64,000 nt of DNA. Source: an uncultured bacterium. Its GTDB lineage: Bacteria > Auribacterota > Erginobacteria > Erginobacterales > CAZKCI01. The translations under genes and the position numbers were made by a program. A model generated the notes under the pieces. That model saw only the letters and a program-made list of their open reading frames with translations. It was not told where the DNA came from and ran no database searches. The stretch lies in NCBI GenBank assembly GCA_964584165.1, contig CAZOYW010000006.1:36022-100021 (forward strand). Reading direction: 5' to 3'. Of the stretch, positions 4,462-29,451 are shown one piece after another (position 1 is the first letter of the stretch; the number at the start of each line of letters is the position of its first letter).

Positions 4462-4463
4462 CC

Positions 4464-7028: not shown

Positions 7029-8165
7029 ATGATGTACAGCCCCTTGCGCTTCCTGCCCCGGATCCTGCGGAAGGGGCGAGCGCCATTGCATCTCACCTAT
7101 TTCATCACCTCCCGCTGCAACTCCCGCTGCGGCTTCTGCTTCTACCGGAAAGAGGACCAAGCACCGGGGGTCGAGCTCGGCGCCGGCGAGGCGGAGCGGA
7201 TCGCCCGCGCCTATCCGGGGAACCTCCTCTGGCTCCTCCTCTCCGGCGGGGAGCCCTTCCTCCACCCGGAGATCTCCGCGATCTGCCGGGCCTTTTACCT
7301 CCACACCCGGCCTACCTTCATCGTCATCCCCACCAACTGCCTCCAGCCACGGGTGATCGAAGCAACGGTGGACCGGATCGCCCGGGAGTGTCCGCGCTCG
7401 CAGGTGGTGATCAAGGCCTCGCTCGACGGCTGGGGAGCAGACCATGACCGCCTCCGTGGCGTGGAAGGGAACTTCGAACTGTTTCGGGAGACCGTGGAAC
7501 GGGTCGGGGCGCTAAAGGTCGGGCGGCGGAACCTCTCCCTGGGCGTCAACACGGTCATCCTTCCCCAAAACCTAGATCTCCTCTCCGACCTGCGCCGGGA
7601 GGTCAGGAAATTGCCGCGCGTGGACTACCACAATTTCTCACTGGTAAGGGGCTCTGCGGCAACGGAGGAGTTGAAGGAGATCGATCCGGAGAGCTACCGG
7701 CGCCTGGGCGGGGATCTGGAAGCCGAGGCGCGGAGGGGAGAAGGCGGCAAGGGGAGCTTTTTCGGGGCCCAGCTGAAGGCCGCCCAGGATATCCGGCAGC
7801 GGGAGCTGGTGTACCGGGTGCTGGCGACGGGGAAGCGGCAGATCCCCTGTTACGCCGGCCGCCTGAACCTGGTCCTGAACGAAACGGGCGACATCTATCC
7901 CTGCGAGATGCTCCCCTGGAAGCTCGGCAACGCCAGGGAGGAAGGCTACGACCTCGGCAAAATCCTCTCCGGCCCCCGGACAGCCGAGTGCCTGAGAGCG
8001 ATCGCGGAGGGGAACGCGGTCTGCGACCGCTGCACCAACGAGTGCTACTTCATCACCAACATACTGTTCAACCCGCGCCAGGCCGCCGCCGCCCTGGGCC
8101 TCGCCGCCCGGATCCTCATCGGCGGAGCGGCGCGCGGAGCAAGGCCGCGGACTCGGCAGAGTTGA
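7029..8165 (+). CDS. Radical SAM/SPASM-domain enzyme, anSME-like (378 aa)
   Basis: CNSRCGFCFY CxxxCxxC cluster near the N-terminus; C-terminal Cys-rich SPASM region (GDIYPCEML...CDRCTNECYF). Confidence 0.85.
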   Translation: MMYSPLRFLPRILRKGRAPLHLTYFITSRCNSRCGFCFYRKEDQAPGVELGAGEAERIARAYPGNLLWLLLSGGEPFLHPEISAICRAFYLHTRPTFIVIPTNCLQPRVIEATVDRIARECPRSQVVIKASLDGWGADHDRLRGVEGNFELFRETVERVGALKVGRRNLSLGVNTVILPQNLDLLSDLRREVRKLPRVDYHNFSLVRGSAATEELKEIDPESYRRLGGDLEAEARRGEGGKGSFFGAQLKAAQDIRQRELVYRVLATGKRQIPCYAGRLNLVLNETGDIYPCEMLPWKLGNAREEGYDLGKILSGPRTAECLRAIAEGNAVCDRCTNECYFITNILFNPRQAAAALGLAARILIGGAARGARPRTRQS

Positions 8166-8230: not shown

Positions 8231-10144
8231 ATGAAATCCAGGCCGAGGATCCGCTCCGAGTGCTTGCTCGCTTTCAGTCTCCTCGCCGCCCTCCTCCCCG
8301 GCTTCGCCTGCCGCCCGAAAGCTCCGCCAGCCGACCGGCCCAATATCTTCATCGCCTTGCTGGACGGGGCGCGGGCCGATCATTTCTCCTCGTACGGTTA
8401 CCCGCTTCCCACCACCCCCCGGATCGACGAGATCGCCCGGAGGGGCGTCCTCTTCCTTGCGGCCTTCGCCCCCGACACCGTGACCCGAACCTCCCTGCCC
8501 CGCATCCTTTCGTCCCGCTATTTCAGCAAGGACATGTTCGGAGTCGACGGGCACCGCTGGGGGATCTGGCGGGAGGACCCCACCACCATCTTCCAGGATT
8601 TCGACCGCGAGGAGATCTCGCTTCCCGAGGTCCTCTCCGCCCAGGGCTACCGAACGATGCTGATCACCAATCACAAGGCGATCACGCCGATGGAGTTCGG
8701 ACGGCTCTTCGACGAGGTCATCGTCGTTCCTTATCCGGAGAACCGGCCCCCGGACGAGGAAACGGCCGCCCGGGCGCTCGCCTGGATCGCGGAAAACCGG
8801 GACCGGCCGTTTTTCGTCCTCTACCACGTCATGTCTCCGCATCATCCCTATCCGGCCAAGGCGGAGGACTCCGAGTTCACGGGCGGGGAGGATCCGGCGC
8901 GGGTCAAATGGGTGAAGACCGAGGCGATCGAGTCCCTGAGCGAGCTTTCCGACGGCTGGACCGCGGACGACCGGCGCATCCTGCGCGGGCTCTACGACGG
9001 GAACCTCCGGCATACCGACAACTGGGTGGGGAAGATTTTCGATCGGCTGGGCGAATGGGGCCTGAAAGACCGGACCATCTTCGTCATCACCGCGGACCAC
9101 GGCATGAACCTCGGCGAGCACCGCCGCATCCACCTGGGCGGCGACGCGTTCCAGTCGATCGCCCACGTCCCCTTGATCATGGCCTGGCCATCGCGCCTTC
9201 CCTCCGGCGTCCGCGTCTCCGGGCTGGTGGAGCTGATCGACCTCATGCCCACCCTCCTGGAACTGGCTGGCCGCGATCTCCCTCGGGGGAAAACGATGGA
9301 CGGCGGCAGCCTCGCGCCTTTCATCCGCAATCCCGACCAGGGGAAGGAGGCGGTCTTCTCGGGAAGGGGGATACGGACGCCGCGCTGGCTCTATTTCCCC
9401 GCGGGGGACGAAGAAGACGAGAGCGAGCTCCTTTTCGATCTCCAAGCCGATCCGGACGAGACCGCCGATCTGGCCGAACGCGACCCGCGGACGGCCGCGA
9501 CCCTGGCCGAGCGCCGGCGGCTTTCCCTCGAACCCTTCCGTAGACGCTTCGAGTCCGCCCGCCGGAAGACCCCCCCCGACTACGCCTTTTACCTCCTCCC
9601 CGAGATGTTCTCCATCACCCCGGAGGGATCTTACGCCGTCTCGGACAAGTGGCGCCGGACCAGGACCGTGCTCGAGAAAGAGGCGCCGACCAAGCCCTGG
9701 CTCCTGCACCGGGAGATGATCCACGGCGGCCTCTTCCGGATCCCTAAAAACGGGGCGGCCACTCCCCTGCGGATGACCGTCGCCGTCCCCAGCGGCGACT
9801 ATCGCGTTTCCCTCCTCCTGGATACTCCGGAGAACCCGCCGGACAATCCCGGGGCGATCGGCCTGCGCTATCGCTTCGATCCTTCCGGAGACTATCTCCT
9901 CCCCGCCGGGATCGAGCCTTTCGGAAGGGGGGAACGCCCCTACTTCTACCTCGACCTGGGCGAAACCTCCGTCCGCGACGATCGTTTCCGGGTCGAGATC
10001 GATTTCGCCCCCCCCGGCGACGAGCCCTACATCATCCGGCACGTCAAGTTCGTCCCCGCCGGGGCGGCGGAAAGCGGCGGCCAGAACGCGGCGCGGGAGG
10101 CGGAAGAGCGGAAGCAGGCGCTGAAGAAGCTCGGCTACGATTGA
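8231..10144 (+). CDS. Secreted/lipoprotein sulfatase-fold enzyme (alkaline-phosphatase superfamily) with degenerate FGly motif
   Basis: Signal peptide MKSRPRIRSECLLAFSLLAALLPGFAC; NIFIALLDGARADH metal-site motif; TTPRIDEIARRG; DHGMNLGEH; the CxPxR position reads T-R-T-S-L. Start taken at the internal ATG (the ORF 7988-10144 is an upstream extension). Confidence 0.8.
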   Translation: MKSRPRIRSECLLAFSLLAALLPGFACRPKAPPADRPNIFIALLDGARADHFSSYGYPLPTTPRIDEIARRGVLFLAAFAPDTVTRTSLPRILSSRYFSKDMFGVDGHRWGIWREDPTTIFQDFDREEISLPEVLSAQGYRTMLITNHKAITPMEFGRLFDEVIVVPYPENRPPDEETAARALAWIAENRDRPFFVLYHVMSPHHPYPAKAEDSEFTGGEDPARVKWVKTEAIESLSELSDGWTADDRRILRGLYDGNLRHTDNWVGKIFDRLGEWGLKDRTIFVITADHGMNLGEHRRIHLGGDAFQSIAHVPLIMAWPSRLPSGVRVSGLVELIDLMPTLLELAGRDLPRGKTMDGGSLAPFIRNPDQGKEAVFSGRGIRTPRWLYFPAGDEEDESELLFDLQADPDETADLAERDPRTAATLAERRRLSLEPFRRRFESARRKTPPDYAFYLLPEMFSITPEGSYAVSDKWRRTRTVLEKEAPTKPWLLHREMIHGGLFRIPKNGAATPLRMTVAVPSGDYRVSLLLDTPENPPDNPGAIGLRYRFDPSGDYLLPAGIEPFGRGERPYFYLDLGETSVRDDRFRVEIDFAPPGDEPYIIRHVKFVPAGAAESGGQNAAREAEERKQALKKLGYD

Positions 10145-10187
10145 GCCGGAGAGGGGATCGGCTTGACGGGCGGAGACCTTCGTCCCC

Positions 10188-13100
10188 CTACTTGTCGTAT
10201 CCCAACGCCTTCAGTTGCTTGAGCAAATGGAGGGACACCGGGGTGGGGGAGGGCGCCGCCGCGGCCCGCGGGACGTCGGAAATGATCCAATCCAAGTACA
10301 TCTTCTTCTCGCCCCTGATCTCCCGGGCCCTTTTCCGCAACCGGTCCGCCGCCTCCGGGCGGGCCGAGACGAGATCGGCCGCCTCGTCCGGGTCCGCCGC
10401 GAGATCGAAAAGGTGCTCCTGCAGCCTCACGTGGCGGGGATCCCACTCCCGGCAGTAGGAGAAGCCTCCCTCCTCCAGGCGGATCCGGCTCAGGTCGATG
10501 GAATAGCTGACCAGGGTCGGCCGGTAGGAGCCCCGGCCGGCGAGCAGGGGAAGAAAGGACACCCCCTGACGGCGGGGAAGAGCGGGCAGGCCCGCCCAGT
10601 CGCAGATTGTGGGGATCAGGTCGATCAGGCGGACGGTTTCGGCGATCTCGCGGCCGGCGAAAAGTCCCCCGGGAAACTTGACGATCAGGGGGACGCGGAG
10701 GTGCTCGATGAAGAGGCGCCCGTGGCAGCGGCTCTGGTGCTCGTAGAACTCCTGCCCGTGGTCGGCCAAGACCGCGATCAGAGCCTTGTCGTATATACCT
10801 TCCTTGGCCAGGAGCTCCCGCAGTCGGCGGAAGAGGTCGTCGGCGACGGCCACGCCGCCATCGTAGAGCTGGAGCGCGTGATCCCGGTGGTCGGGTCGGG
10901 AGAGGTCGATCCCCTTCCAGAAGGACTTGACTATATCCGCCCCGTTCTTGCCTAAGCCCTCCAGGCCGGTCGGAAGGCCGGGGACGGGGCGGCGAAGAAA
11001 GCGCCGGCGGATTTCCGGGGGACCGAAGACATAGGGGTCGTGGCAGTAGTTGTGATGGATAAAGAGGAAGAGTGGCTTTCCGCGGGCGCGGCTCTCCCCG
11101 ATCGCGGCCGCGATGTCGGCGGGCAAGGCCCCGGGGACGAGGCGGAGGTGGTCGAACGAATCCCGGAAAAGATCGAAGCCGCGGGCGAAGCCGAGTGAGC
11201 CGTCGAGCTCGGCCCCGCCGTGCACCGCCGCCGTGAAATATCCGTTGGCCCGGAGAAGCTCGGCATAGGTGGCGATCTTCGCGGGAAGGCTGTTGGCCCG
11301 CTGGCGGATGCCGACGCCCAGGTTTCGCACCAGGTTGACATCGGGCATCAGGGCGGTCAGGAGCGACATGTAGGAGGGAGCGGAGGTCGGACACTGGCTG
11401 AGCACGCGCCGGAAGAGCACGCCCTCTCGGGCGAGCTCGTCGAGGGCGGGGCTGGTCGGGCTCGGATTCCCATAGCAGGAGAGGCGGTCGGGGCGCAGGG
11501 CGTCGATCGAGAGCAGTACGATGTCGGGAAAGCCCGCGGGGGGAGACGAGCCGGCGACCGGGACCGGGGGGGCGGGCGAGGGCGGGCGGACCGGCGCGCC
11601 GTTTTCGGAACAGTGCTTCCAACCGATGTAGGCCCGGACGTCGGAGGGGTCGAGGTCGACCGCCGCGCGGAAGGAGCCGGCGGCGCGGGTCACGTCGCCG
11701 CGGGCGAGATAAATCTCCCCCTCTTCGAGGATCGCCTCCAGGCCGTCGGGTTCCCGCCGGCGGGCTTCCGCCGCCAATCCCGCGGCCCGGTCGAGATTCC
11801 CCCGTTCCCGGAAAAACCGGGAAAGGTGAACAAGGTCGGCGGCGCCGGGCGCGCCGAGCGACAGGAACCGCTCGAAATACCGCTCCGCCTCCTGGAAATG
11901 TTCCATCCCCTCCTCGGAGTAGCCCAAACCGAGCAGGGCGGAGGGGTTCTCGGGATCGGCGGCGAGCACGCGGGAGAACAGCTCGGACGCCGTCTGAAAA
12001 TCGTCGACCTCATAGCAGGCATAGGCCGATTGGATCATCCAGTCGGCTTCGCCGGGGCGGCGGGCCGGACCCGGGAGAACAGCGCCGGCCCGCGGGACGA
12101 GCCGGGCTTCCGGGGGCACCTCTCGGAAGGCGAAATAGCCGTCCCGCCAATCCGTGAAATAGCTCCGGTCCGCCAGCATCTCCAGACCCGCTCCGAAGTA
12201 GTGGTTGAAGATCGCCCGAAAGGTGTTGGCCGGCGTGATCCCGGGGTAGAGGGCCTTCTCTCCGCCGTCGGGCAGATGGTAGGCGTTCAGGATCGAGAGC
12301 CCCTCCCGCACGTTCGACTTCTCGAACTCGCAGAAGACATACTCCGAACGGGGCCCGTGATCGGCCTGCAGGATGATGATGGGCGGCCGGGAAGACCGCC
12401 GGAGAAGCCCGTCCACCATCTCGAGCACCTTCCGGTTCATGAACTTCAGCTGGCGGACGTAGCGCTCCCGGTACTCCTCCCGGCTGATCCCCAGGCGGTC
12501 GAGGAATCCCGCGGCGTCCCCCGACAGGAAATAATCGGCCAGCTGCACCGGCTCGCCGTTCTCGCCGAAGACAAACGGCGGGTGCGGGGCGCCGAGGTGG
12601 GCGAAGACGAAGAGCGGCCCGGGCAGGAGCGCGGTCTCGGGGATCTCCTCCAGGGCGAAAAGGATCCTCTGCCGGTGGCGCCGATATTGGGCGCTCTCCC
12701 CCCCCAGCAAGGCGAGCAGGGGCGGCAGGGGGGTGGCGTTGATCAGTTCGTTCTGGAACTCGGACGGCGACCAGCCGCAGGAGAAGTAGAGGTCGGCGGC
12801 CCGGAGCTCGGTCTTGTCGTAGCCGCTGGAAAAGGCCGCGAAGCGGTAGCCCAGACCCCGGAGCGAGGCCGCCGTCCGGTTGTTGAGGAGCAGAGACCGG
12901 GGATAGCCGATCTTGCTCGCCCGGAACCTTTTTTCATCCAGATACGACCAGTTGAGCGAGGAGGCGAGGCTGATCAGGCTCAGGTCGTAGTTCGACCGGG
13001 CCCGCTCGGCGACATAGAAACCCCGGGACTTCAGGGCGTCCAGGAACTCGGAGTTGTCGAACCCGTAGACCTCCCGGAGGATGTCGCCGCGGGCGTAGGC

Positions 13101-13643
13101 GTCGAGAATGACGTAGTAGACGTTGGGCAACCCTCCACCCCCCTCGGGCGGGCGAAGCGGGACGGGGGGAAGGGCGACGGCGGGACCGGCCCGCTCGGCC
13201 CGGATCGCCTGGCGGGCGATCCCGAGGAGGGGAAGACCGACCAGCACCAAGCCGACGACGGTGAAGACGGCCGTCCAGGAGGAGAGGCGGCCGCGGAAGC
13301 GGCGGCCGGCCAGGAAGAGCGCGGCGAAAACGGCCGCCCAGAGGGGGAGCAGAAAGCGGTGGCCGCCGACCCGGATCCCGGCGACCGTCCATTCCTGGGC
13401 CAGCTCGTGAAAGCGCCCGTAGGAAAAGAAGAGGAGGAGCAGGAGGGAAACCGTCGCCGCGGCGAACGCCCGGTCCTTCAGGATCAGGCGACCGGCCAGG
13501 AAGAGAACGCCGGCCAGGAGCGCGAGGAGAGCGAGCGGAAGCGGCAGTTCGGACGCCTCTATCTCCTGAAAGTTCCGGGAGTAAAGAAAAAGCGCCGGCG
13601 CCCAGGCGAAAAGAAAAGGGTGGAAGATCGGTCTCGGCCTCAT
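10188..13643 (-). CDS. Large membrane-anchored multidomain protein: N-terminal TM segment + AP-superfamily (LtaS/sulfatase-like) domain + TPR repeats + second sulfatase-fold domain (1151 aa)
   Basis: Four N-terminal TM helices; YYVILDAYARGD and ILQADHGP in domain 1; TPR-like FSRVLAADPENPSALLGLGYSEEGMEHFQEAERYFERFL; domain 2 IVLLSIDALRPDRLSCYGNPSPTSPALDELAREGVLF with motif S-A-P-S-Y and DHGQEF. Confidence 0.8.
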   Translation of the reverse strand: MRPRPIFHPFLFAWAPALFLYSRNFQEIEASELPLPLALLALLAGVLFLAGRLILKDRAFAAATVSLLLLLFFSYGRFHELAQEWTVAGIRVGGHRFLLPLWAAVFAALFLAGRRFRGRLSSWTAVFTVVGLVLVGLPLLGIARQAIRAERAGPAVALPPVPLRPPEGGGGLPNVYYVILDAYARGDILREVYGFDNSEFLDALKSRGFYVAERARSNYDLSLISLASSLNWSYLDEKRFRASKIGYPRSLLLNNRTAASLRGLGYRFAAFSSGYDKTELRAADLYFSCGWSPSEFQNELINATPLPPLLALLGGESAQYRRHRQRILFALEEIPETALLPGPLFVFAHLGAPHPPFVFGENGEPVQLADYFLSGDAAGFLDRLGISREEYRERYVRQLKFMNRKVLEMVDGLLRRSSRPPIIILQADHGPRSEYVFCEFEKSNVREGLSILNAYHLPDGGEKALYPGITPANTFRAIFNHYFGAGLEMLADRSYFTDWRDGYFAFREVPPEARLVPRAGAVLPGPARRPGEADWMIQSAYACYEVDDFQTASELFSRVLAADPENPSALLGLGYSEEGMEHFQEAERYFERFLSLGAPGAADLVHLSRFFRERGNLDRAAGLAAEARRREPDGLEAILEEGEIYLARGDVTRAAGSFRAAVDLDPSDVRAYIGWKHCSENGAPVRPPSPAPPVPVAGSSPPAGFPDIVLLSIDALRPDRLSCYGNPSPTSPALDELAREGVLFRRVLSQCPTSAPSYMSLLTALMPDVNLVRNLGVGIRQRANSLPAKIATYAELLRANGYFTAAVHGGAELDGSLGFARGFDLFRDSFDHLRLVPGALPADIAAAIGESRARGKPLFLFIHHNYCHDPYVFGPPEIRRRFLRRPVPGLPTGLEGLGKNGADIVKSFWKGIDLSRPDHRDHALQLYDGGVAVADDLFRRLRELLAKEGIYDKALIAVLADHGQEFYEHQSRCHGRLFIEHLRVPLIVKFPGGLFAGREIAETVRLIDLIPTICDWAGLPALPRRQGVSFLPLLAGRGSYRPTLVSYSIDLSRIRLEEGGFSYCREWDPRHVRLQEHLFDLAADPDEAADLVSARPEAADRLRKRAREIRGEKKMYLDWIISDVPRAAAAPSPTPVSLHLLKQLKALGYDK

Positions 13644-13706
13644 CGCGGATCGGATCGGCCCTGCATCATGTAAATGAGACCGTCCGTCGGATCGGTTGCC
13701 CGCTTC

Positions 13707-15188
13707 TCATCTTCCTTGCCCCGGTTCCTCCGCCCGAGGAATCCCCTTCTCCCGCCCCGGCGATCCGGAGAGGTAGCGCAGGTAGTTCTTGCGCGCGCGC
13801 CAGAAGACCTTCGCCGCCTCCGCCCAGGAGATCGGCTTCTCGGACTTGTAGCGCCAGAGGGAGGATAGCACATAGATCAGGAAAAAGAGCCTTTTGGATC
13901 GGACCCGGACCAGGCGGCGGAAGAGGGGGAGGAGGGCGGGGAAGCGCATCGCCAGGTGCGAGATCTTCTGCACGCGCTCGATCGTCTCGATCCCCGGAAA
14001 GCGGAAGACGCTGTTCAGGTGGATCCCCCGGTACGCCGGGGAGCGGAGGTAGTCGGGATCGAGGATCCCCGCCTTCCGGGCCGACTCCTCGATCGCGGTC
14101 TTGGGGAAGGGAAGGAGGACGTTGGAGGCGAGGAAGTCCGCGCCCAGGCGGAGGTTGAAGCGGATGTTCTCGAAGGCCTCGTCCACGGTCTCGAAGGGGA
14201 GTCCGAACATCACCGTGGTCTGGAGCTTCATCCCCTGCTCCTTGATCAGGCGGGCGGCGGCGAGCATCTCCTCGTTGGTCACGCGCTTGTTCAGGACCTC
14301 GAACCGCTTTCGCTCGCTCGCCGTCTCGACGCCGAAGTTCACGGTGTGGCATCCGCTCTCCTTGAGGAGGCGGGCGATCTCGGGGGTGAAGTTGGGCGGC
14401 GTGATCGCGCAGAAATAGGGGAGGCCGATCTCGCGGCGGTAGAGATCGGTGAAGCGCTTGAGCCAGCCGACGTCCATGATGAAGACGTCGTCGAGGAAAC
14501 AGAGCGAGGAGAGGCCGTAGCGCTTCTTCACCCCGGCGATCTCGGCGATCACCCGCTCCGGCGACTTCCGCCGGACGTAGCGGCCCTTCCCCCGGTAGAG
14601 GCGGCTGTAGACCTGGTGGCAGCAGAAGGCGCAGTCGAAGGGGCAGCCCCGGGAGGCCATGAAGTGCTTGAGCCGCTCGTCCCGGAGCGAGGGATACTTG
14701 CGGTAATAGAGATCGCGGTCCTCCTCGGGGAGCGAGTCGAGGTCGAGGATCGGCTCCGGTTCCCCCCCCCGGACGATCTCCCCACGCCGTTTTACCCAGA
14801 AACCGGGGAGCGGCTCCGGCTTCCCCCCGGCCCGGAGGGCGGCCAGGAAACGGGGGAAGGAGCGGTCCCCCTCGCCGACGCAGACGGCGTCGATACCCTC
14901 CTCCGCGACCATCTCCGGGCAGGCCGTGGCGTGGATGTAGCCGGCGACCACGGTCACGGAGGGATGGAGGGCCTTGACCCTCCGGGCCTGCTCCAGCATC
15001 CAGGCGTATTCCAGCGACATCACCGGGAGGGCGAGTACGTCCGGGCGGAAGGCCGCGGCGGAAGCCGCCGCGTCCCGCTCGAGGTCGCCGATGAAGACCT
15101 CCCGCTCCACCTCCGGAGGCAGTGAGGCGGAGAGGGCCATCACGCCGAAGTAGGGGAAAGGGTATTTCTGGAGAAAGGCGATCCGCAT
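13707..15188 (-). CDS. B12-binding (class B) radical SAM enzyme (493 aa)
   Basis: N-terminal cobalamin-binding-like domain; SRGCPFDCAFCCH radical SAM cluster. Confidence 0.85.
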   Translation of the reverse strand: MRIAFLQKYPFPYFGVMALSASLPPEVEREVFIGDLERDAAASAAAFRPDVLALPVMSLEYAWMLEQARRVKALHPSVTVVAGYIHATACPEMVAEEGIDAVCVGEGDRSFPRFLAALRAGGKPEPLPGFWVKRRGEIVRGGEPEPILDLDSLPEEDRDLYYRKYPSLRDERLKHFMASRGCPFDCAFCCHQVYSRLYRGKGRYVRRKSPERVIAEIAGVKKRYGLSSLCFLDDVFIMDVGWLKRFTDLYRREIGLPYFCAITPPNFTPEIARLLKESGCHTVNFGVETASERKRFEVLNKRVTNEEMLAAARLIKEQGMKLQTTVMFGLPFETVDEAFENIRFNLRLGADFLASNVLLPFPKTAIEESARKAGILDPDYLRSPAYRGIHLNSVFRFPGIETIERVQKISHLAMRFPALLPLFRRLVRVRSKRLFFLIYVLSSLWRYKSEKPISWAEAAKVFWRARKNYLRYLSGSPGREKGIPRAEEPGQGR

Positions 15189-15224
15189 CGGGGATAGGGG
15201 ATGGGGGCTAGAGGTTAGGTTTTT

Positions 15225-15248
15225 GGGTTCAGGGTTCAGGGTTCAGGG
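15225..15248. repeat. Tandem heptamer (GGGTTCA)x3 spanning the stop codon of the YfhO gene
   Basis: gggttcagggttcagggttcagggg read directly; it encodes the C-terminal ...LNPEP* on the - strand. Confidence 0.5.
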
Positions 15249-17517: not shown

Positions 17518-17612
17518 GGTCTGCGATCGGTCACGGCGGTTTTTAACCGCGAATTGACGCGAATCTCCGCGAATATATCGGACAACCGATCACTTCTTCT
17601 ATTTGCCGGTTG

Positions 17613-17682
17613 CCTGTGGGAGCGACATTCTTGTCGCGAGCCACGCCCTATGGGATCGGGGCAGGAATGCCCCTCCCACAGG
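17613..17682. repeat. REP-like palindromic intergenic element (CCTGTGGGAGCGACATTCTTGTCGCGAG...GGGGCAGGAATGCCCCTCCCACAGG)
   Basis: 70-bp imperfect palindrome with terminal inverted repeats CCTGTGGGAG/CTCCCACAGG; a second copy lies at 48599-48710. Confidence 0.6.
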
Positions 17683-17714
17683 CTCGCTGAGCTGGGGCAC
17701 ACGCGATCGACCGG

Positions 17715-18767
17715 CTAGAGTTTCTCCCTTTCCCGGCGCCGCGGCCAGAGGTTTCCCAGGATAGTCTGGTAAGCCTCGCAGGGCGTCCAGCACTGGGGGC
17801 AGCGTCCGGAGTGGATCTCCCCCTGCAGGGCGCCGACCACCGGCGACGACCAGAGGCGGCCCAGGGAAAATCCCTCCCCCCGGAGGTTCCCCAACGGGCG
17901 GTCGTAGCCCGCGCAGGGGTAGACGGTCCCGGCGGGGTCGACGAAGCAGGACGCAGAGAGGGAGAGGCAGGGGAGCGGGCATCTCCCCGTGCGCAGATAA
18001 GCGCGGGCGAGCGAGAGGTAGCGCCGCTCCAAATAACTCTCCGGACGGAGCGCTCCCCCCGTCCGGGGGAGAGAAGAGAGGAGATCCTCCGGCTCCTCCG
18101 GGAGGAGGGAGGCTTCGCCCGGGTTATGGTAGAAGAACGAGCGGTGGACGAGGTTGAAATGAAGATCGGAGGGCTTCACCCAGGGGAGATACCGCCTCAC
18201 CGCCGCCAGCGTATCACCGACCGACCGGAAGTTCTCCGCGTGCAGGGTCATCCCCAGGTAGGCCTCCGCCCCAACCTCCCGCCGGAGGCGACCGAACGTC
18301 TCCAGGGCGCGGGCGAAGGATCCCTCCACCCCGCGCAGGCGGTCGTGGAGGGCGGGGGGGCCGTCGAGGCTGACGCTGACGATGAAGCGGGGCGGGCCGG
18401 AAGCGAGCGCCGCCCGCGCGGCGGCGAGAACGCGCTCGACCAGGTAGCCGTTGGTGGGGAAGTGCAGGAGGAGGAGCCGGCGGGAACGGGACGCGATCGC
18501 CCGGATGATCTCCGGCAGGTCTTCGCGCAGGGCGACCTCGCCCCCCGTCAGATCGACCCAGGAGAAGAAGGGATTGCGCTCGAAAAAAGAGTCGATCTCG
18601 CGGAGCGACAGATCGTCGGCGGACGGATGCGCCCAGGTCCGGCAGGCGAGGCAGCGGAGGTTGCAGCGGTAGGTGAGGGCGAAGGTGAGCTTGTATGGGC
18701 TCTGGAGGCGCCGGAAGTTGGAGAGGAGCGCCCGGGCGCCGAGTCGGAGATAGGAAAGGAGAGGCAT
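17715..18767 (-). CDS. Radical SAM/SPASM-domain enzyme, anSME-like paralog (350 aa)
   Basis: CNLRCLAC cluster; SLDGPPALHDRLRGVEGSF shared with the other three SPASM paralogs; C-terminal CPLPC...CPQCWTPCEAY. Confidence 0.85.
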   Translation of the reverse strand: MPLLSYLRLGARALLSNFRRLQSPYKLTFALTYRCNLRCLACRTWAHPSADDLSLREIDSFFERNPFFSWVDLTGGEVALREDLPEIIRAIASRSRRLLLLHFPTNGYLVERVLAAARAALASGPPRFIVSVSLDGPPALHDRLRGVEGSFARALETFGRLRREVGAEAYLGMTLHAENFRSVGDTLAAVRRYLPWVKPSDLHFNLVHRSFFYHNPGEASLLPEEPEDLLSSLPRTGGALRPESYLERRYLSLARAYLRTGRCPLPCLSLSASCFVDPAGTVYPCAGYDRPLGNLRGEGFSLGRLWSSPVVGALQGEIHSGRCPQCWTPCEAYQTILGNLWPRRREREKL

Positions 18768-18777
18768 CGGGGATTAA

Positions 18778-18830
18778 GTGATCAGTAATCAGTAATCAGT
18801 GATCAGTGATCAGTGATCAGTGATCAGTAA
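18778..18830. repeat. Perfect tandem heptamer array (GTGATCA/GTAATCA)x7 in the 123-bp gap upstream of the SPASM gene
   Basis: gtgatcagtaatcagtaatcagtgatcagtgatcagtgatcagtgatcagtaa; followed by gaacc-rich direct repeats (aactgcgaaccgcgaacccgtgaaccgttgaaccctg). Confidence 0.7.
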
Positions 18831-18890
18831 ACTGCGAACCGCGAACCCGTGAACCGTTGAACCCTGTATCCCGCATCCCGGTCCATCCTT

Positions 18891-19652
18891 TCATCCGAGA
18901 AGAAGATATTTCAGCCAGCTATACACGTATCGGCAAGACACCCGGCGGAGGCGGATCTTCGACTCCCCGAAGCGGCGGCTGAATTCGTGGGAGGGGATCT
19001 CGGCGATCCGGAAGCCCTTCCGCAGGGTCTTGATCGTCATCTCCTGCTCGATGGTGGTGATGTTCTCCTTGAGATCGAGGGCGCGAGCGCACTCCGCTGA
19101 GAGCGCCCGGAAGCCGTTCTGCGACTCGCTCAAGCGCACGCCGAAGCGGTAGTTGATCCCGAGCGTGATGATGTCGCTCCCGATCATCCGGAGAAACTTG
19201 TTCAAGTCGCCGTGAAGCTCGTCGGAGCCTCCCCGGGGGCGGGAGCCGACGACGTGGTCGGCCTCTCCCCGGAGGATGGGGAGGACCAGGCGGGGGATGT
19301 CGGCGGGACGGTGGGAGTAGTCGGCGTCGATAAAGACGATGACCTCGCCCGCGGCCTCCCGGATCGCGGTCCGCACGCCATCCCCCTTCCCCTTCCCCCC
19401 GTCCAGGACCACCCGGCAGCCCAAGCCGGAAGCGATCTCGCGGGTCCGGTCGGAGGAATGGCCGTCCACCACCAGGAGCTCGTCGGCGTAGGGGCGGGAG
19501 AAGCGGACGATCTCGCCGATCGACTTCTCCTCGTTCCGGGTCGGGATGACCACCGTGACCTTCTTCGTCCGGCGGCCGTACTCGGCGAGGATCTCCTCGT
19601 CGGAGCCGGCGGGGGCCCAGGGGTCGGCCGAATCGATCGGCGGGCGGTTCAT
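18891..19652 (-). CDS. GT2 polyprenyl-phosphate sugar synthase, DPM1/GtrB-like, soluble (253 aa)
   Basis: VTVVIPTRNEEKSIGEIV...VVDGHSSDRT...FIDADYSH; DPM1-type GT-A catalytic core. Confidence 0.85.
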   Translation of the reverse strand: MNRPPIDSADPWAPAGSDEEILAEYGRRTKKVTVVIPTRNEEKSIGEIVRFSRPYADELLVVDGHSSDRTREIASGLGCRVVLDGGKGKGDGVRTAIREAAGEVIVFIDADYSHRPADIPRLVLPILRGEADHVVGSRPRGGSDELHGDLNKFLRMIGSDIITLGINYRFGVRLSESQNGFRALSAECARALDLKENITTIEQEMTIKTLRKGFRIAEIPSHEFSRRFGESKIRLRRVSCRYVYSWLKYLLLG

Positions 19653-19886
19653 GCGGCCATTATGGGGGAGAGAAACCTTTCTGCCAAGACTTCTTCGGGC
19701 GCAAGAAACGGCTCGTTAGGTTATCGCGCCAAGACGCCAAGTCGCAAAGGGGGGATAGAGGATAGGGGATAGAGTTTAGAGATGGGGGGGCGGTGGCGTC
19801 GACCGAGAGAACGCGGTTTGCCTCCTCTGTAAGGCCTCAGTTACGAGGGGGAAATCCCATGGGAGCGGCGTCTAGCTTGCCCCGCA

Positions 19887-22373
19887 TTACTGAGGCCCTA
19901 CTCCCCGATCAAGCCGATTTCGTCGGCCAGGCAGGGAGAGGACCATGATTACGCCGATCAACCCCGCGGCGGTCCAGGCCAGGCCGGGGCCGAGGGAGGG
20001 GGGGAGGAATTCCATCACGATCTCGCGGCTGCCGGGGCGGCACCAGACCCCCCTCTGGAGGTAATTGACCCGGTGGACGTCCTTGGCGCGTTCGTCCACC
20101 CGGACCTTCCAGCCGGGGTGATGGAGATCGGTGACCACCAGCATCGAGAGCTTTTTCACCTCCATCCGGAAGACCAGCCGGTGGGGGTCCGTCTCGTCGA
20201 CGGAGAGGATGCGGTTGGATTCCTGGAGATCGTCGAAATGGGCCTTCCATTCGGCGTCGGAGAGTGGCGGGGGATGTGGGTAGAGGTGGGCGAAGGGGCG
20301 AACGTGCCAGACCTCCCGCGGGCAGTATCCGGCGGCGCGGAGGTCGAAGTTGAGGAGGGCAAACCTCTCCCGCTCCTCGTCCGCCACCACCCAGCGGTCC
20401 TGGAAATACCAACGCGGGAGGGGTTCCGGGAGAAGGCCGGCGTAGCAGCGCCCCGGCCCGGCGGGGATGGGCTGGGCCGGCGGGGCGAGGGGCGCTGCGG
20501 AAAGGAGGTAGCGGACGGACAGGTTCCGCCAGAAGTTCGACGCCCAGTCCCGGGGGACGAGCTCGCCCCCCGATCGGTCGGCGGCGCCGGAGAAGGCGGT
20601 GGCGGCGCGGCGGCCGACCGGGCCGAGCTCGAAACCAAGCGGGGACGCCGAGCCGAAGGCCCAGGCGAGGTTGTCGAAGGCGGAGCGGAAATATCCCCGG
20701 CGATAACGGTTCTCCAGGTCGGGGAAGGCGGCGGCGAAGGAAGCGGCCGCGCGATAAGCCGGATGGTCGGAAGGGCCTCGGTAGCGCGCGCCGAAGAGGT
20801 CGCCGGGGGGAAAGGCGGGAGCGGCGGAGCGGTAGAACCCACGGTAGGCTCCGAGCGCTATTTCCAGCAGGGCGAGAAGGAGGACGGCGGACGGGCGGAA
20901 ACGAAGGGGGAGGAAGCGGACGGCGGCGAAGAAAGCGCCGGCCGCGGCCAACCCCGCGAAGAGGGCGAGAAGGAGACCGGAAACGGCGACGGCGGCGAGG
21001 CCGCGGAGGCCGGGGAAAACGAGGCCAAGGGCGGACCGGTAGGGCCAGAACAGGGCGAAAAGGACGATCCCGGCGAAGACGGCCAGGATCTTCCCGATCC
21101 GGGAGGGAGACACGGCTTCCGGATGGCCGCGGAGGGACTGAAAAGAGAGGCCAAGGAGGAGCGACCAGGAGAAGGCGAGGAGAACGGGCGGCGAGGAGCC
21201 GAGGATGCGGTCGGGAGCGAGGAAGGCGAGTAAGGCGCCGGCGAGGAAGCAGAATATGGCGACGCCGGCCGCCGCCCCCGGTAGGCCCGCTCCCCCGACT
21301 CTGCTGTTGGATTGTAATATTGGAATGTCGGGGCAAGTGCGAGCGGGCGCGACGGCTCCCCTCCTCCGCCGGATAGAGATGAGCCCGCTAGCGACGAGAA
21401 GGGCGGAGGCGATCCCGCCGGGGAGAGCGACCGACGGCCAGCGGCGGCCCAGGGCGAGGGCCGGCCCCCAGAGGCCATGACCCGTATCGGCCCCAAAGAT
21501 GCCGGGGACGAGGAAACCGGCGAGCGCGGCCGGGGAGAGGGGGAAGACGGGCGGGGGAGGCGCGGCGAGCTCGGCTTCCCGGACGAGGCGCAGCGACTCG
21601 GGGAGGCCGGCCCAGCGGATGCCGGAGAGGCACCCCCCAAGGACGAGCGCGGCGAAGGCGCCCCCGAGAGCGCGCCGGGCGGCGAGGCGGTCGGCGCGCC
21701 GGAGAAAGGCGAGAACGAGCGCCAGGCCGAAAACGGCGATCGAGAGGAAGACGCCGGCGGCCGCGGCGAGGTCGCCCCCCAGGCTGGAAAGGGCGGCGGC
21801 ACCCGCAGCGGCGAGGAGGCGCCCGCGGCCGCCTTCCCGGGAGAAGAGGAGGAGGAAGAGGGCGGCGGCGGGGAGCCAGGCTAGGGAGAAGATCGCCGGC
21901 AACCGCCCGGTCTGGAGGGCGAAGACCGGCGAGAGCGACCAGGAAAGGGAGAGGAGGAGCGCGGGGGCGGGATCGAGGCGGAGCCCCCGGCGGGCGAGGG
22001 CGAAAGCGAAGAGGCAGGAGAGGAGGAGATGGGCGGCGAGCGGGAAGAGGTAGAGGGCCGGATAATCGGCGAAGGCCGATCCGCTCCCCAGGAGGAGAAA
22101 CGGCCAGTTCGGAGGATAGAGGGCGGCATGGGAAAGGCGCACGGACCAATCGACCGCCCCCGCCCCGACCGCCGGGTCAAACCAGGGATAGTGCCCCGCG
22201 CGGAGAAGGCGGGAGAGGAACAACTGCTGCGGATAGGAGAGGAGGGCGGCCTCGCCGGAGAAAGCGCCGGAAACGCCGCAGAGATAAGGGAGGAGAAAGA
22301 TCAGAAGAAGGAGAGGGCCGATGAAGGTCCCGATCCAGCGGAGAGAAGAAGCCGTCGGGGCGCGAGGGGTCAT
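19887..22373 (-). CDS. YfhO-family GT-C membrane glycosyltransferase (828 aa)
   Basis: Polytopic; C-terminal VVTDLHHPGWKVRVDERAKDVHRVNYLQRGVWCRPGSREIVMEF. Confidence 0.8.
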   Translation of the reverse strand: MTPRAPTASSLRWIGTFIGPLLLLIFLLPYLCGVSGAFSGEAALLSYPQQLFLSRLLRAGHYPWFDPAVGAGAVDWSVRLSHAALYPPNWPFLLLGSGSAFADYPALYLFPLAAHLLLSCLFAFALARRGLRLDPAPALLLSLSWSLSPVFALQTGRLPAIFSLAWLPAAALFLLLFSREGGRGRLLAAAGAAALSSLGGDLAAAAGVFLSIAVFGLALVLAFLRRADRLAARRALGGAFAALVLGGCLSGIRWAGLPESLRLVREAELAAPPPPVFPLSPAALAGFLVPGIFGADTGHGLWGPALALGRRWPSVALPGGIASALLVASGLISIRRRRGAVAPARTCPDIPILQSNSRVGGAGLPGAAAGVAIFCFLAGALLAFLAPDRILGSSPPVLLAFSWSLLLGLSFQSLRGHPEAVSPSRIGKILAVFAGIVLFALFWPYRSALGLVFPGLRGLAAVAVSGLLLALFAGLAAAGAFFAAVRFLPLRFRPSAVLLLALLEIALGAYRGFYRSAAPAFPPGDLFGARYRGPSDHPAYRAAASFAAAFPDLENRYRRGYFRSAFDNLAWAFGSASPLGFELGPVGRRAATAFSGAADRSGGELVPRDWASNFWRNLSVRYLLSAAPLAPPAQPIPAGPGRCYAGLLPEPLPRWYFQDRWVVADEERERFALLNFDLRAAGYCPREVWHVRPFAHLYPHPPPLSDAEWKAHFDDLQESNRILSVDETDPHRLVFRMEVKKLSMLVVTDLHHPGWKVRVDERAKDVHRVNYLQRGVWCRPGSREIVMEFLPPSLGPGLAWTAAGLIGVIMVLSLPGRRNRLDRGVGPQ

Positions 22374-22469
22374 GAGCGCTTATCGATCAGAGGCCGTTAT
22401 TCCGCGCCCGGGCGACCGCGGTGGCCGAGATATCCACGCGGCAGACGGGGCGGCGGGCGGAGGCGGGCC

Positions 22470-23966
22470 TCATCGCTGCTCCGATGCGGGCCGGCGCGGG
22501 CGAGGGAGAAAACGCTTCCCCAGGCGGGCCGCCAGCACGCCCGCGAAGACGAGGAAGTAGGGCTCAAGCACGAAGCGGTGGCGCATGTTCTCGCCCATGG
22601 AGAGGAGACAGGTGACCGCCGTCCACCAGGCCGAGGTGTAGAGCATAAAAAGAAGGGTCGCGGCGCCGGGGTCGGGAGCGGCGGGAGGCCGGGAGCGGCG
22701 CAGGCGGCGGGCGGCCTCGACGGCTCCGAAGAAGAAGAGGAGGAGCCAGGCCGCGACGAGCCCCCAGGCGACCCGGTCGTCGGCCCAGCGAGTGCGGAAC
22801 TCCTCCGGTTTCAAATAGAGCCGAGGGGGAGAGAAGCGACCGTAGAAGAGAACGTCGTAGAGGCGCACCGCCGAAGGGATCGGCCAGTTTCCACCTTCGC
22901 TGAAGTAGTCGGCGGCGGGCTGGAAGTATCCCCGGACCGCAAAGGCGACGGAGCGCAGATAGAACTCGGGGCGGGACAGGAGGAGGCGCACCGAGTCGGT
23001 CGTGTAGCGCTTGTTGATGTGGAGATAGGCGATGTGGTTGAAGTTGACGTCCTTCCCGTCCGACTTGAACTCGCGGTCGAGGGCGGGAACGCCGGTCGGC
23101 GGCCAGCTCGTCCAGGCGGGGGGATAGTCCTTGAAGGGCTTCATGGTCGGGATGGGGGGGAGAAGGGATAGTTCCGAGATGGCGCCGCCGGATTCCCGGA
23201 CGAGCTGCTGCCGGATTGCCGCCGGCATGTAGCCCGCGACCACGTGGTAGAGCGTCGTCCCCATCGAGGAACTCGCCGCGGGGGAGCCGAAGAGGACGAG
23301 GTTTTTCGCGTAGAGAACCAGGACCAGGGCGGTGGGGAGGGCGGCGGCGGCGAGGACCCGTTTCCGCCGGGCGGGGAAGCGGAGGAAGAGCCAGAGGACG
23401 ACCAGGAGGTACCAGGCGAGATGGAAGACGTTGCGGGTGAAGACCACGGCGGCGAGGAGGAGATAAAGGACGACGGCGTCGGCGCGGCGGCCGGAAGAGG
23501 CGAAGCGATGGAAAAAGAGGGCGCTGAAGGCCAAAAGGCCGGTGATGAGATAGGTGTCGAAGAGGTAGTTCTCGTAGAGGACGCAGGCAGGGCTCACCAG
23601 AAACCAGGAGACGAGGAGGGCGGAGAGGAGAGAGGAGACCCCGAACCTCCGGAGGAGGGCGAAGACGGCCCACCCCATGCCCAGGCCGAGGAGGCGGTGG
23701 AGAAAGGCGTAGGCTACGACCTCGCGGCCGGGGAAGGCCTTGAGGACCAGACCCAGGTAGAAATTGAACAGGGGAGGCTGGCAGTGGAGATAGACGAGGG
23801 ATTCGCCGAGGCGGTTCCGGAGGAGGTCGGGGTCCAGGAACTGCTCGGCGTACTCGAGCGTCTGGGCGTCGAAGCGGACGCCCAGGCGCGCGTAGACGAC
23901 CCGGGACAGGATGAAGACGGCAACGAGCAGGGTAGGCCAACGGCCGGATTTCAGGGCGGCTCTCAC
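22470..23966 (-). CDS. Polytopic integral membrane protein (~499 aa), function unknown, putative GT-C-like
   Basis: Multiple TM helices. Start placed at the GTG that overlaps the upstream TGA (GTGA), because the longer ORF to 24413 would overlap the sulfatase-fold gene by 450 nt. Confidence 0.55.
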   Translation of the reverse strand: MRAALKSGRWPTLLVAVFILSRVVYARLGVRFDAQTLEYAEQFLDPDLLRNRLGESLVYLHCQPPLFNFYLGLVLKAFPGREVVAYAFLHRLLGLGMGWAVFALLRRFGVSSLLSALLVSWFLVSPACVLYENYLFDTYLITGLLAFSALFFHRFASSGRRADAVVLYLLLAAVVFTRNVFHLAWYLLVVLWLFLRFPARRKRVLAAAALPTALVLVLYAKNLVLFGSPAASSSMGTTLYHVVAGYMPAAIRQQLVRESGGAISELSLLPPIPTMKPFKDYPPAWTSWPPTGVPALDREFKSDGKDVNFNHIAYLHINKRYTTDSVRLLLSRPEFYLRSVAFAVRGYFQPAADYFSEGGNWPIPSAVRLYDVLFYGRFSPPRLYLKPEEFRTRWADDRVAWGLVAAWLLLFFFGAVEAARRLRRSRPPAAPDPGAATLLFMLYTSAWWTAVTCLLSMGENMRHRFVLEPYFLVFAGVLAARLGKRFLPRPRRPASEQR

Positions 23967-25381
23967 TTGAGATAGCCGAGGGCCCTGAGCTTCTCCCGGG
24001 CTTCCGGGGTCCACCGCTGCTCGCGGCGCTGGTAAGAAAAGCGCGGAGTGATCCGAAGCCATTCCTCCAGCGCCCCTTCCAGGGCGGCGGCGCGCTCCGA
24101 GCCGCCGGGCAGGAGGTCGTTCGCCTCGTCCGGGTCCCGCGCGATGTCGAAGAGATGGCGCTCGCCCGCGTTCGACTCCCCTCCCCCGCGAATCAGGCGG
24201 CTCCCGTTCCGGAGGAGGCTCTGGAGACGCGGGGCTTCCTCCTCCTCGAGTTCGCAGGCCAGCGGCCGGGAAGGCCGCGGGGCGGACCCGGAGAGGCGAT
24301 CTAGTTGACTCACGCCCTGCAGCCCGGGCGGCGGGGGGATCTTCAGGCAATCCAGAATGGTGGGGTAGATATCGAGTATGGAGGCCGGATCGCCGACCAC
24401 CTTGCCCGCCCACTCCCCCTGCGGATCGGCCAGGATCAGGGGGATCCGCACCGACTGGGCATAGAGCGTCCTCCCGTGGGCGAGCCGGCCGTGTTCCAGG
24501 AACTCCTCGCCGTGGTCGGCGTGGAGAATGACCAACGTTTCGCCGGAGGGCAGAACCTCGGAGAAGAGCCGGCGGATGAAGTCGTCGGTGTAGGCGATCT
24601 CGCTGTCGTAGAGATCGACGAGCGTCTCCCGGCGGGCGGGGTCGTCACGGACGCCGGACTTCGAACCGTCGATATCGTCGTCGAAGTTGGACGCGTTCAG
24701 GGCCGGGTCGCCGATCAGGGCGGGGTGGCGGGCGTACTCTTCGATCCAGGGGGAGCGAGGGGTGTAGGGGGCGTGGGGGTCATAGTAGAAGATCCAGAGG
24801 AAGAAGGGGCGCTCCCGGCGAAGCCGCTCCCGCAGGGACAGCAGACGGCGGTGGACCGCGTCGGCGTCCATCAGGTCGCCGGTCTCGATGAAGACGTCGA
24901 AGCCCTGGTCGCTTCCCGTCCAGACCCCGGCCTGGGGGTTGGCGGAGACGCCGAAGGCGGCGTAGCCGTTCGCCTTCAGGGTCTCGGCCAGGGTGACGAA
25001 GGAGGGATCGATTTTGATCGGCCAGCGGGTGCCGTCGGTGGCGATCAGGTCGGTGGTGACGACGCCGTGGCTGCGGGGATGGAGGCCGGTGAAGAGGGAG
25101 GCCATCGCCGGGCGGGTCCAGGAGGTCACCGACCAGCAGTCGGTGAAGCGGGCGCCCCGGGCGGCCAGGGAGTCGATGAAGGGTGAGGTCTTCCTCCCAT
25201 AGCCGTAGGCGGAGAGGTGATCCGGACGGAGCGTGTCGACGCTGATCAGGACGACGTTGGGTCGCGGAGGGGTTCGGCCGCAGGAGGCCAGGAACAGGGC
25301 GAAAAGCGGAACCCAGGCGGCCGGTCGCCGGAGGAGCGAGCGCGCGAGCGGAAGGAGAGCAAACCGGGGCGATCGTTGCAT
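23963..25381 (-). CDS. Lipoprotein sulfatase-fold enzyme (AP superfamily) with degenerate FGly motif (472 aa)
   Basis: Lipobox LFALFLASC; [14 protein letters not shown]; motif position reads T-R-P-A-M followed by ASLFTG; HADHGEEF. Confidence 0.8.
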
Positions 25382-25388: not shown

Positions 25389-25910
25389 TCACTCCCCCGC
25401 CGTACGGTCCCGCTCCGAGAGGATGGGACGCCGCACAGGCCAGTGGATCCCGAAGGCCGGGTCGTCCCAGCGGAAGGTCGCCTGGGCGGCGCGGTCGTAG
25501 TAGCCGGACTGCTTGTAGTGGAAGATGGCCTTGTCGCTCAGGACAAGATGGGCCACGCCGTGGCCGGGCGGGACGAGGACCTGGAGGTGGTTGGCGTCGG
25601 AGAGGGTGAAGGCCTCCCAGAGGCCGAAGTCCGAGCGGGACCGGTCGCAGACGGCCACCACCAGGTAGAACTTCCCGTAGAGGCAGTCGACCAGCTTCCA
25701 GATCCGGGGGTCGGCGTGGATCCCGCGGAGCACGCGGCGGGAGGAGACGGAGATGTCGTCCTGGACGAAACGCGCCGCGACGCCGGCCCGGCGGTAGAGC
25801 TCTTCGTTGTAGGTCTCGACGTAGACCCCCCGGTGGTCCCGGAAGACCGTCGGGGGAACGATCACCTTCACCCCCGGCAGCTCCGTCGGCTTCACGAGTA
25901 GCTCCGCCAT
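25389..25910 (-). CDS. rmlC: dTDP-4-dehydrorhamnose 3,5-epimerase-like cupin (RmlC family)
   Basis: FVQDDISVS, LRGIHAD, KLVDCLYGKFYLVVAV, VPPGHGVAHLVLSDKAIFHYKQSGYY match RmlC motifs. Start at the internal ATG, which has an AGGAGGA RBS; the ORF's first Met (25967) adds 19 aa. Confidence 0.75.
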   Translation of the reverse strand: MAELLVKPTELPGVKVIVPPTVFRDHRGVYVETYNEELYRRAGVAARFVQDDISVSSRRVLRGIHADPRIWKLVDCLYGKFYLVVAVCDRSRSDFGLWEAFTLSDANHLQVLVPPGHGVAHLVLSDKAIFHYKQSGYYDRAAQATFRWDDPAFGIHWPVRRPILSERDRTAGE

Positions 25911-29447: not shown

Positions 29448-29451
29448 GGGC

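Follow-up and report, generated by a model that had tools for sequence, protein, structure and literature searches.

Sulfatase-fold proteins with threonine or serine at the formylglycine position, encoded in a bacterial envelope-glycan island, are probable phosphoryl-transfer enzymes

We analysed a 64,000-nucleotide stretch of contig CAZOYW010000006.1 (assembly GCA_964584165.1) from an uncultured bacterium of the Auribacterota, which we refer to as the window. It contains three genes, all carrying the annotation "sulfatase", whose products have Thr or Ser in place of the residue that is converted to formylglycine (FGly) in true sulfatases. The window has a G+C content of 63–73%, mostly 66–72% (in 2-kb steps), and holds about 34 genes, with the minus strand dominant as judged by codon-position G+C. 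We call the protein encoded at 8231-10144 A, that at 23963-25381 B and that at 10188-13643 C. Their lengths of 637, 472 and 1,151 amino acids, respectively, are the same in independent public gene calls. The genes and their domains are as follows.

8231..10144, plus strand: A, 637 amino acids, with a signal peptide, a Thr-type sulfatase-fold domain at about residues 37-430 and a C-terminal region of about 200 amino acids that has no domain assignment
10188..11546, minus strand: domain 2 of C, about residues 700-1151, a Ser-type variant of the Thr clade described below, with PF00884 at 706-1018
11547..13643, minus strand: N-terminal part of C, with about 4-5 transmembrane (TM) helices, a divergent domain 1 resembling the alkaline phosphatase (AP) superfamily and TPR repeats at about residues 535-675
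23963..25381, minus strand: B, 472 amino acids, a predicted lipoprotein with a Thr-type sulfatase fold

In Pfam searches, PF00884 was matched end to end in A (E value 1.6e-44), C (1.1e-37) and B (3.7e-39). The S1-type C-terminal module PF16347 was above the cut-off in A and C, and in B it reached 27.2 bits, just under the cut-off of 29.3 bits. The proteins therefore have the architecture of S1 sulfatases, in which a PF00884 alpha/beta core is followed by an S1-type C-terminal subdomain. We also observed matches to PF01663 (NPP) above its gathering score of 23 (B, 50.3 bits; C, 35.6 bits; A, 29.2 bits), but in each protein the PF00884 score exceeded the PF01663 score by about 95–125 bits. B carries a canonical lipobox (L-A-S-C34) and no TM segment above threshold. 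A has one N-terminal hydrophobic segment and a signal peptide, in which G-F-A-C27 may serve as a non-canonical lipobox. Because of the lipobox of B, the signal peptide of A and the N-terminal TM helices of C, all three proteins should act outside the cytoplasmic membrane. Residues 1–700 of C (the TM, AP-like and TPR parts) constitute a separate family, which occurs as stand-alone proteins of 630–710 amino acids in Zixibacteria and WOR-3. Domain 1 of C reached only 21 bits against PF00884, which is below threshold. Its conserved residues are D181, S217-N218-Y219, H353 and D428-H429; it thus has S-N-Y where the nucleophile is expected and retains the Asp, P-H and D-H-G elements.

To locate the nucleophile position, we relied on HMMER alignments with sulfatase-fold proteins of solved structure. 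T89-R-P-A-M of B aligned on (FGly)-S-P-T-R of 7stt, with the start of the segment, S-W-T89, opposite P-V-(FGly) of P-V-(FGly)-S-P-T-R-A-S-I-M-T-G. T-V-T85-R-T-S-L-P-R of A aligned on T-V-(FGly)-G-P-S-R-M-S of 4upi, and P-T-S754-A-P-S-Y-M-S-L-L-T-A of C aligned on P-S-S-T-P-A-R-A-G-L-L-T-G of 7oz8. The codons of these residues lie at 8483-8485 (T85 of A), 25115-25117 (T89 of B) and 11382-11384 (S754 of C). At this position A, B and domain 2 of C all lack the C/S-x-P/A-x-R signature of formylglycine sulfatases. A preliminary description of this DNA, made from its letters, had proposed that T-R-T-S-L, T-R-P-A-M and S-A-P-S-Y replace the signature, and the three alignments agree with it. Its conclusion that these are not canonical formylglycine sulfatases also holds, as the signature Arg is absent and no Cys occurs at the nucleophile column. 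The objection that it had raised against itself, an intact C/S-x-P-x-R elsewhere in the proteins, found no support at any plausible site. A regular-expression scan for [CS]-x-[PA]-x-R returned no match anywhere in A or C and a single match in B, S71-L-A-A-R, which lies 18 residues before the active-site position on a different helix; 0.64 such matches are expected by chance.

The Thr-type sequence is not peculiar to this genome. Searched against 5.8 billion proteins, B matched 2,479 of the candidates scored at E<=1e-10, and all 120 of the matches listed had Thr at the nucleophile column, within the motif W-T-x-P-[SA]-[MVHL]-x-S-[LIM]-x-T-[GS]. We also scanned all 1.84 billion 50%-identity representatives with B, using HMMER; 59,016 matched at E<=1e-10 and 18,020 at E<=1e-30. 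Among the best 150 representatives, which gave 149 alignable domains, the nucleophile column was occupied by Thr in 147, Ser in 1, Pro in 1 and Cys in 0. The fifth position of the signature in these domains was Met, Val, Thr, His or Leu, never Arg. Because Thr is kept in 120/120 listed homologues and in 147/149 representative domains, the substitution is under selection and not a product of decay. What the preliminary description had presented as an unusual motif is the hallmark of a family with tens of thousands of members or more.

The size of this clade can be gauged against true sulfatases. The best solved formylglycine sulfatase scored 87.6 bits against B, which by our own arithmetic corresponds to roughly E 1e-19 when rescaled to the representative library, so that the 18,020 clusters at E<=1e-30 are nearer to B than any solved true sulfatase. 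A scored 157 bits against members of the Thr clade and 90 bits against the best solved formylglycine sulfatase, and domain 2 of C scored 202 bits against clade members and 75 bits against the best solved sulfatase. Since the clade scores exceed the solved-sulfatase scores in both, A and domain 2 of C, together with B, belong to one very large clade. The nearest motif relatives of domain 2 of C have Thr (T-A-P-S-F in P0120; T-L-P-S-Y in P0100 and P0109), so that its Ser is a rare variant within the Thr clade. Clade members are named "sulfatase" or "arylsulfatase A-like enzyme" in databases. A minority of them carry 5–6 N-terminal TM helices right before the Thr domain, which is the layout of LtaS and EptA. 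In six members of 900–1,550 amino acids (P0295, P0300, P0306, P0323, P0327 and P0395), the 472-amino-acid query was matched in 2–5 separate stretches, and these members may hold tandem Thr-type domains in one polypeptide.

Conservation within the clade extended well beyond the nucleophile. In an alignment of 66 sequences with a mean column identity of 28%, residues R52, D54, T89, G139, G160, H203, Y258, D289, H290, G291, H302, G356, E419 and Y470 (B numbering) were invariant, and D49, W88 and P91 were at least 90% conserved. The catalytic set in B consists of D49, R52-x-D54, T89, H203, D289-H290 and H302. A has the same set (D45, R48-x-D50, T85, H204, D289-H290 and H301), as does domain 2 of C with Ser as the nucleophile (D714, R717-x-D719, S754, H868, D961-H962 and H974). 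Such retention in all three proteins is not the pattern of a decaying pseudo-enzyme.

This set resembles that of enzymes that transfer phosphoryl groups from a threonine. The active site of the MCR-1 catalytic domain is formed by E31, T70, which is phosphorylated, H180, D250, H251 and H263, and EptA and LtaS have analogous sets (PMC7576196). When the lists were compared, without a direct alignment of the proteins, the clade residues D49/T89/H203/D289-H290/H302 matched MCR-1 E31/T70/H180/D250-H251/H263 by residue type, order and spacing. The gap from the carboxylate to the Thr is 40 residues in the clade and 39 in MCR-1, and the last two His are 12 residues apart in both. The clade thus has the features of a Thr phosphotransferase, namely a Thr, a metal site of a carboxylate and Asp-His, and two further His, with Ser for Thr in C. 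The preliminary description had offered phospho-transfer as one of two alternatives, and the correspondence with MCR-1, EptA and LtaS favours it. NCBIfam models of EptA gave local matches to residues 39-97 of A, which cover the Asp...Thr segment, and to residues 251-304 of B, which cover the DHG...H segment. Whole-protein scores against the EptA, CptA, MCR and LtaS models were 16–29 bits, for cut-offs of 404–1250, with those of the EptA and LtaS models at 500–970.

Outside the active site, the clade differs from these transferases. Unlike the phosphoethanolamine transferases EptA, MCR-1 and EptC, the phosphoglycerol transferases LtaS, LtaP, GacH and OpgB, or YejM/PbgA, A and B have no multi-span membrane domain and do have an S1-type C-terminal module. 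The roughly 4-5 TM helices of C precede a different domain, unlike the membrane domain that delivers the phospholipid donor in LtaS and EptA. The first ligand is Asp in the clade and Glu in the EptA/MCR-1 type, and the clade motif is W-T-x-P, whereas the Thr-nucleophile transferases have T-x-N-x-E or G-T-S-T. The clade also differs from S1 sulfatases and phosphonate monoester hydrolases (6hr5, 7stt, 4upi, 4upl and human ARSA), in which a Cys or Ser is converted to formylglycine and where the clade has Thr or Ser. In A, B and C, the signature Arg of the S1 enzymes is replaced by Met, Leu or Tyr, and the second Asp of their "DD" pair by Thr, Gly or Ala. By contrast, the R-x-D after the first Asp and a distal His, both invariant, are additions of the clade, and a Lys that is aligned in 7stt is not kept. 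Proteins of the NPP/PafA type (PF01663) are similar in having the Thr nucleophile in T-x-P, followed by ...S-x-x-T-G-x-x-P, and the D-x-x-R-x-D block of the clade resembles the "D-G-F-R-x-D" of NPP. Taken together, the clade combines the architecture of a sulfatase with the catalytic residues of a Thr-nucleophile phosphotransferase.

The genes around A, B and C mark the window as an envelope-glycan island. Between 179 and 53547 it encodes, predominantly on the minus strand, at least 13 polytopic membrane proteins of 490–1,050 amino acids, with 7–13 predicted TM helices. Several of these are paralogues of one another; for the majority, Pfam returned either nothing or weak YfhO/PMT_2 (GT-C-like) matches. 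For one 64-kb stretch, this array of GT-C-like genes is unusually dense. The island also contains four GT2 genes, one GT9 gene and genes for an RmlC-like epimerase, a split transketolase, a methyltransferase and an RGP-like protein. Orthologues of B with 51–62% identity occur at four other loci (L001-L004), where they follow a B12 radical S-adenosylmethionine (SAM) gene, a split transketolase and an RmlC-like gene in the same order; GT2 and PMT_2 genes are also part of this synteny.

We made several further observations on the island. A fourth AP-superfamily gene, at 58514-61000 on the minus strand, encodes 828 amino acids with about three predicted TM helices (440-539) and a C-terminal NPP-type domain (PF01663, E 2.4e-25), and it adjoins the GT9 heptosyltransferase-like gene. 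Directly upstream of B, a run of genes at 25389-29471 on the minus strand encodes the B12 radical SAM protein, the transketolase, with its N and C halves separate, and the RmlC-like dTDP-sugar isomerase. The same run lies upstream of the B orthologue at 6121-9932 in L001 and at 6074-9882 in L002, and genes of the GDP-heptose type (SIS, GHMP kinase, HAD and nucleotidyltransferase) are found near the run in L001. Such a gene set suggests the synthesis of an unusual branched or higher-carbon sugar. The gene at 30468-33215, on the minus strand, encodes a membrane glycosyltransferase of the PMT_2 type that continues C-terminally into ankyrin repeats; in related loci (L001, 3044-3562; L002, 2189-4701), the ankyrin protein is separate and stands beside the PMT_2 gene or replaces it.

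We consider it probable that A, B and domain 2 of C are active, extracytoplasmic, metal-dependent phosphoryl-transfer enzymes of the AP superfamily that use a Thr or Ser nucleophile and serve this envelope-glycan island. The hydroxyl of the Thr (Ser in C) would be used directly as the nucleophile, with no formylglycine. A divalent metal on D49, T89, D289 and H290 (B numbering) would activate the Thr hydroxyl for attack on a phosphate ester or a diester, and the enzyme would become covalently phosphorylated at the Thr. This intermediate would then be resolved by water or by the hydroxyl of an acceptor, with the phosphoryl group or a second metal bound by H203 and H302. The target would most likely be a phosphate-linked substituent, to be added, removed or trimmed, on the glycan or glycolipid of the envelope that the GT-C-like membrane glycosyltransferases and the GT2 enzymes encoded nearby would build. 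For A and B, a hydrolase or a polymer-to-polymer transferase seems to be favoured. As these two proteins lack the lipid-reaching membrane domain of LtaS and EptA, the transferase reading is weaker than the hydrolase one.

Several points weigh against this interpretation. The lack of an LtaS/EptA-type membrane domain in A and B counts against its transferase form. In overall fold and by their best sequence matches, the proteins go with true sulfatases and phosphonate monoester hydrolases, not with LtaS or EptA. The proposed chemistry is read from the identity of the residues, because our literature search found no characterised or solved member of the W-T-x-P clade with S1 architecture and because solved structures are at most about 25% identical to the clade proteins. 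In addition, AP-superfamily enzymes are notoriously promiscuous, and sulfate or phosphonate esters could be substrates. The genomic context of the clade gives little help on the substrate. When we clustered open reading frames (ORFs) around B homologues in 38 loci, no universal neighbour emerged as a common partner of the Thr clade; there was only lineage-specific synteny in haloarchaea. Likewise, when the Pfam contexts of three homologues with 41–43% identity were compared, the only recurring element was a TPR protein downstream of two of them.

Among other explanations, the one that survives best is that these proteins hydrolyse sulfate, sulfo- or phosphonate esters directly through the Thr or Ser and form a branch of the S1 fold that is independent of formylglycine. 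It would be consistent with the fact that S1 sulfatases and phosphonate monoester hydrolases are the nearest sequences and folds of known function, with the presence of the S1-type C-terminal module and with the retention of H203, the equivalent of the His that binds the sulfate ester in S1 enzymes. Members of the superfamily with a Ser or Thr nucleophile also have low-level sulfatase activity. We nevertheless regard this explanation as unlikely. S1 enzymes bind sulfate through Lys, His and Lys residues (K123, H125 and K302 of ARSA). The Lys of the 7stt sulfatase lies opposite R304 in B, at a position that is variable in the family, and the Lys/His segment of the "GKWH" type (K123/H125 of ARSA) was unaligned in the comparison with 7stt and varies within the family. 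The proteins lack the signature Arg, and no sulfate-metabolism or sulfotransferase gene was detected among the window genes scanned. To our knowledge, the characterised PF00884 members with a Thr nucleophile all transfer phosphoryl groups. We also considered EfAS, an Mn-dependent arylsulfatase whose NCBIfam model matches weakly, as a precedent but rejected it, as EfAS uses Cys61 and formylglycine.

We find it more unlikely still that the proteins are dead pseudo-enzymes derived from sulfatases that serve as binding or scaffold proteins, with the TPR-linked members acting as adaptors of the glycan machinery. The loss of the sulfatase signature would fit such a role, as would the recurrence of TPR proteins adjoining or fused to clade members (in C and at L002, L040 and L042), and YejM/PbgA was long held to be non-enzymatic (PMC7576196). 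However, six residues of catalytic type, among them the nucleophile and the metal ligands, show little or no variation even between highly diverged sequences, and all of them are present in A, B and C. Because such invariance is expected of active enzymes, it argues for active enzymes rather than scaffolds.

The remaining alternative concerns the radical SAM genes of the window. There are seven of these, three SPASM-type paralogues and four B12-binding paralogues.

7029..8165, plus strand: radical SAM protein (g05) that ends in a reduced SPASM-like region, identified with Pfam; the public call starts at 7056
17715..18767, minus strand: second SPASM-type paralogue (g10); its neighbours are genes for a YfhO-like membrane protein and a GT2 enzyme, and it adjoins no sulfatase-like gene
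50110-51210: third SPASM-type paralogue
13707..15188, minus strand: B12-binding radical SAM protein (g08), on the strand of C and immediately upstream of it; orthologues of 63–70% identity occur at L001 and L002
27948-29471 (minus strand), 55538-57343 and 62202-63686: the other B12-binding radical SAM paralogues

A begins 66 bp downstream of 7029-8165 on the same strand. This is the only one of the three SPASM-type genes that touches a sulfatase-like gene; C is flanked by a B12-type radical SAM gene, and B by the RmlC-like gene and a membrane protein. With seven radical SAM genes among about 34 in the window, such adjacency is expected by chance. By rough estimates, the probability that at least one of the three sulfatase-like genes adjoins a radical SAM gene is about 0.7, or about 0.4 for the SPASM type alone. 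The preliminary description had placed the genes next to radical SAM enzymes resembling anSME, the anaerobic sulfatase-maturating enzyme. The adjacency is real for A, next to a SPASM-type gene, and for C, next to a B12-type gene, but none of these neighbours is demonstrably anSME-like.

The likeness of the 7029-8165 type to anSME (AtsB and anSMEcpe) consists of a CxxxCxxC core, a Cys-rich C-terminus and a weak Pfam SPASM match, and it differs in that the neighbouring sulfatase-fold proteins have no C/S-x-P/A-x-R substrate motif. A PDB sequence search with 7029-8165 and 17715-18767 gave no match to a solved anSME at E<=1, and anSME was not among the top 25 NCBIfam matches of the SPASM-type proteins. 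Their best NCBIfam matches were TIGR04053, AhbD, NirJ and ScmE at 40–70 bits, far below the cut-offs. The SPASM domain of anSME contains at least seven Cys that hold two auxiliary clusters, in the pattern CX9-15GX4C ... CX2CX5CX3C ... C. In the 7029-8165 family, C30, C34 and C37 of the radical SAM motif (CxxxCxxC) are invariant, but the family and the two window paralogues have only five conserved C-terminal Cys (C274, C292, C332, C335 and C339). Their spacing is C-x17-C ... C-x2-C-x3-C, with none downstream.

The partner of this radical SAM gene in other genomes is a glycosyltransferase gene. The 7029-8165 family is widespread at about 45% identity, among others in metagenome-assembled genomes (MAGs) labelled Nitrospirota, Beta- and Gammaproteobacteria and Thermodesulfobacteriota. 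At three loci of its orthologues (L045, 3600-5689; L046, 5994-8128; L047, 6006-8080), which take in a Betaproteobacteria MAG and a Thermodesulfovibrionales MAG, an upstream GT2 gene was the invariable partner (3/3), and no PF00884 gene was present. Some of these loci also have a B12 radical SAM gene, an amine-oxidase-like flavoprotein and membrane proteins of the PMT_2/YfhO type. The window holds the same pair, with the GT2 gene at about 5975-7021 and the radical SAM gene at 7029-8165, on the plus strand. The paired GT2 gene encodes about 340 amino acids, Glyco_transf_21-like with C-terminal TM helices, and the radical SAM protein has 360 amino acids. The pair looks like a conserved module for the modification of a glycolipid or glycan. 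An ORF of 869 amino acids at 4412-7021 (plus strand) was rejected as a gene: over its first two thirds it reads a real membrane-protein gene at 4464-5978 in the wrong frame, and only its last third is the GT2 gene. Within 10 kb of B homologues, no copy of 7029-8165 or 17715-18767 was found in any of 35 other GTDB genomes, nor was there a SPASM-type gene in the contexts of the three B homologues with 41–43% identity.

Because of the lack of anSME similarity, the five Cys, the GT2 partner and the absence of copies near B homologues, we conclude that 7029-8165 and the other neighbouring radical SAM genes are not maturases of A, B and C. The preliminary description had taken the pairing as a hint of a new maturase relationship. 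In such a system, the product of 7029-8165 or a paralogue would oxidise the residue at the nucleophile position (Thr85 in A, Ser754 in C) to a ketone or aldehyde; this would be a second maturation system for the superfamily, acting without recognition of C/S-x-P-x-R and yielding cofactor-bearing sulfatases or hydrolases. Apart from the 66-bp spacing and the Cys-rich, SPASM-matching C-termini, what speaks for this is that Ser-x-P of C looks like the first three residues of a Ser-type signature. The proposal is highly improbable, as thousands of family members have the invariant Thr and most of them have no such neighbour, the Arg needed for formylglycine chemistry is absent and oxidation of Thr would give a ketone and not formylglycine (PMC5066984). 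The neighbouring radical SAM genes would instead encode enzymes of the island pathway that act on sugars or lipids.

Nothing in the window itself points to a new chemistry or a new maturation system. It exemplifies a very common annotation problem that has already been flagged. The paper on SulfAtlas pointed out that PF00884 holds numerous sequences without the formylglycine signature, that Thr occupies the catalytic position in 30 of the 59 Pfam seed sequences and that such proteins cannot be regarded as sulfatases (PMC5066984). Because of that account, the kind of protein described here is already known, although we found no characterised member for the W-T-x-P clade with S1 architecture. 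Like these three genes, many of their relatives in databases (18,020 clusters at 50% identity, E<=1e-30) carry the name "sulfatase" or "arylsulfatase A-like" and yet cannot make formylglycine, so that counts of sulfatases may be inflated in metagenomes and in such lineages as Planctomycetota, Myxococcota, Acidobacteriota and Haloarchaea. Biochemical work on a single member would serve to reannotate a very large family and would also close a gap that lies between sulfatases and phosphotransferases in AP-superfamily evolution.

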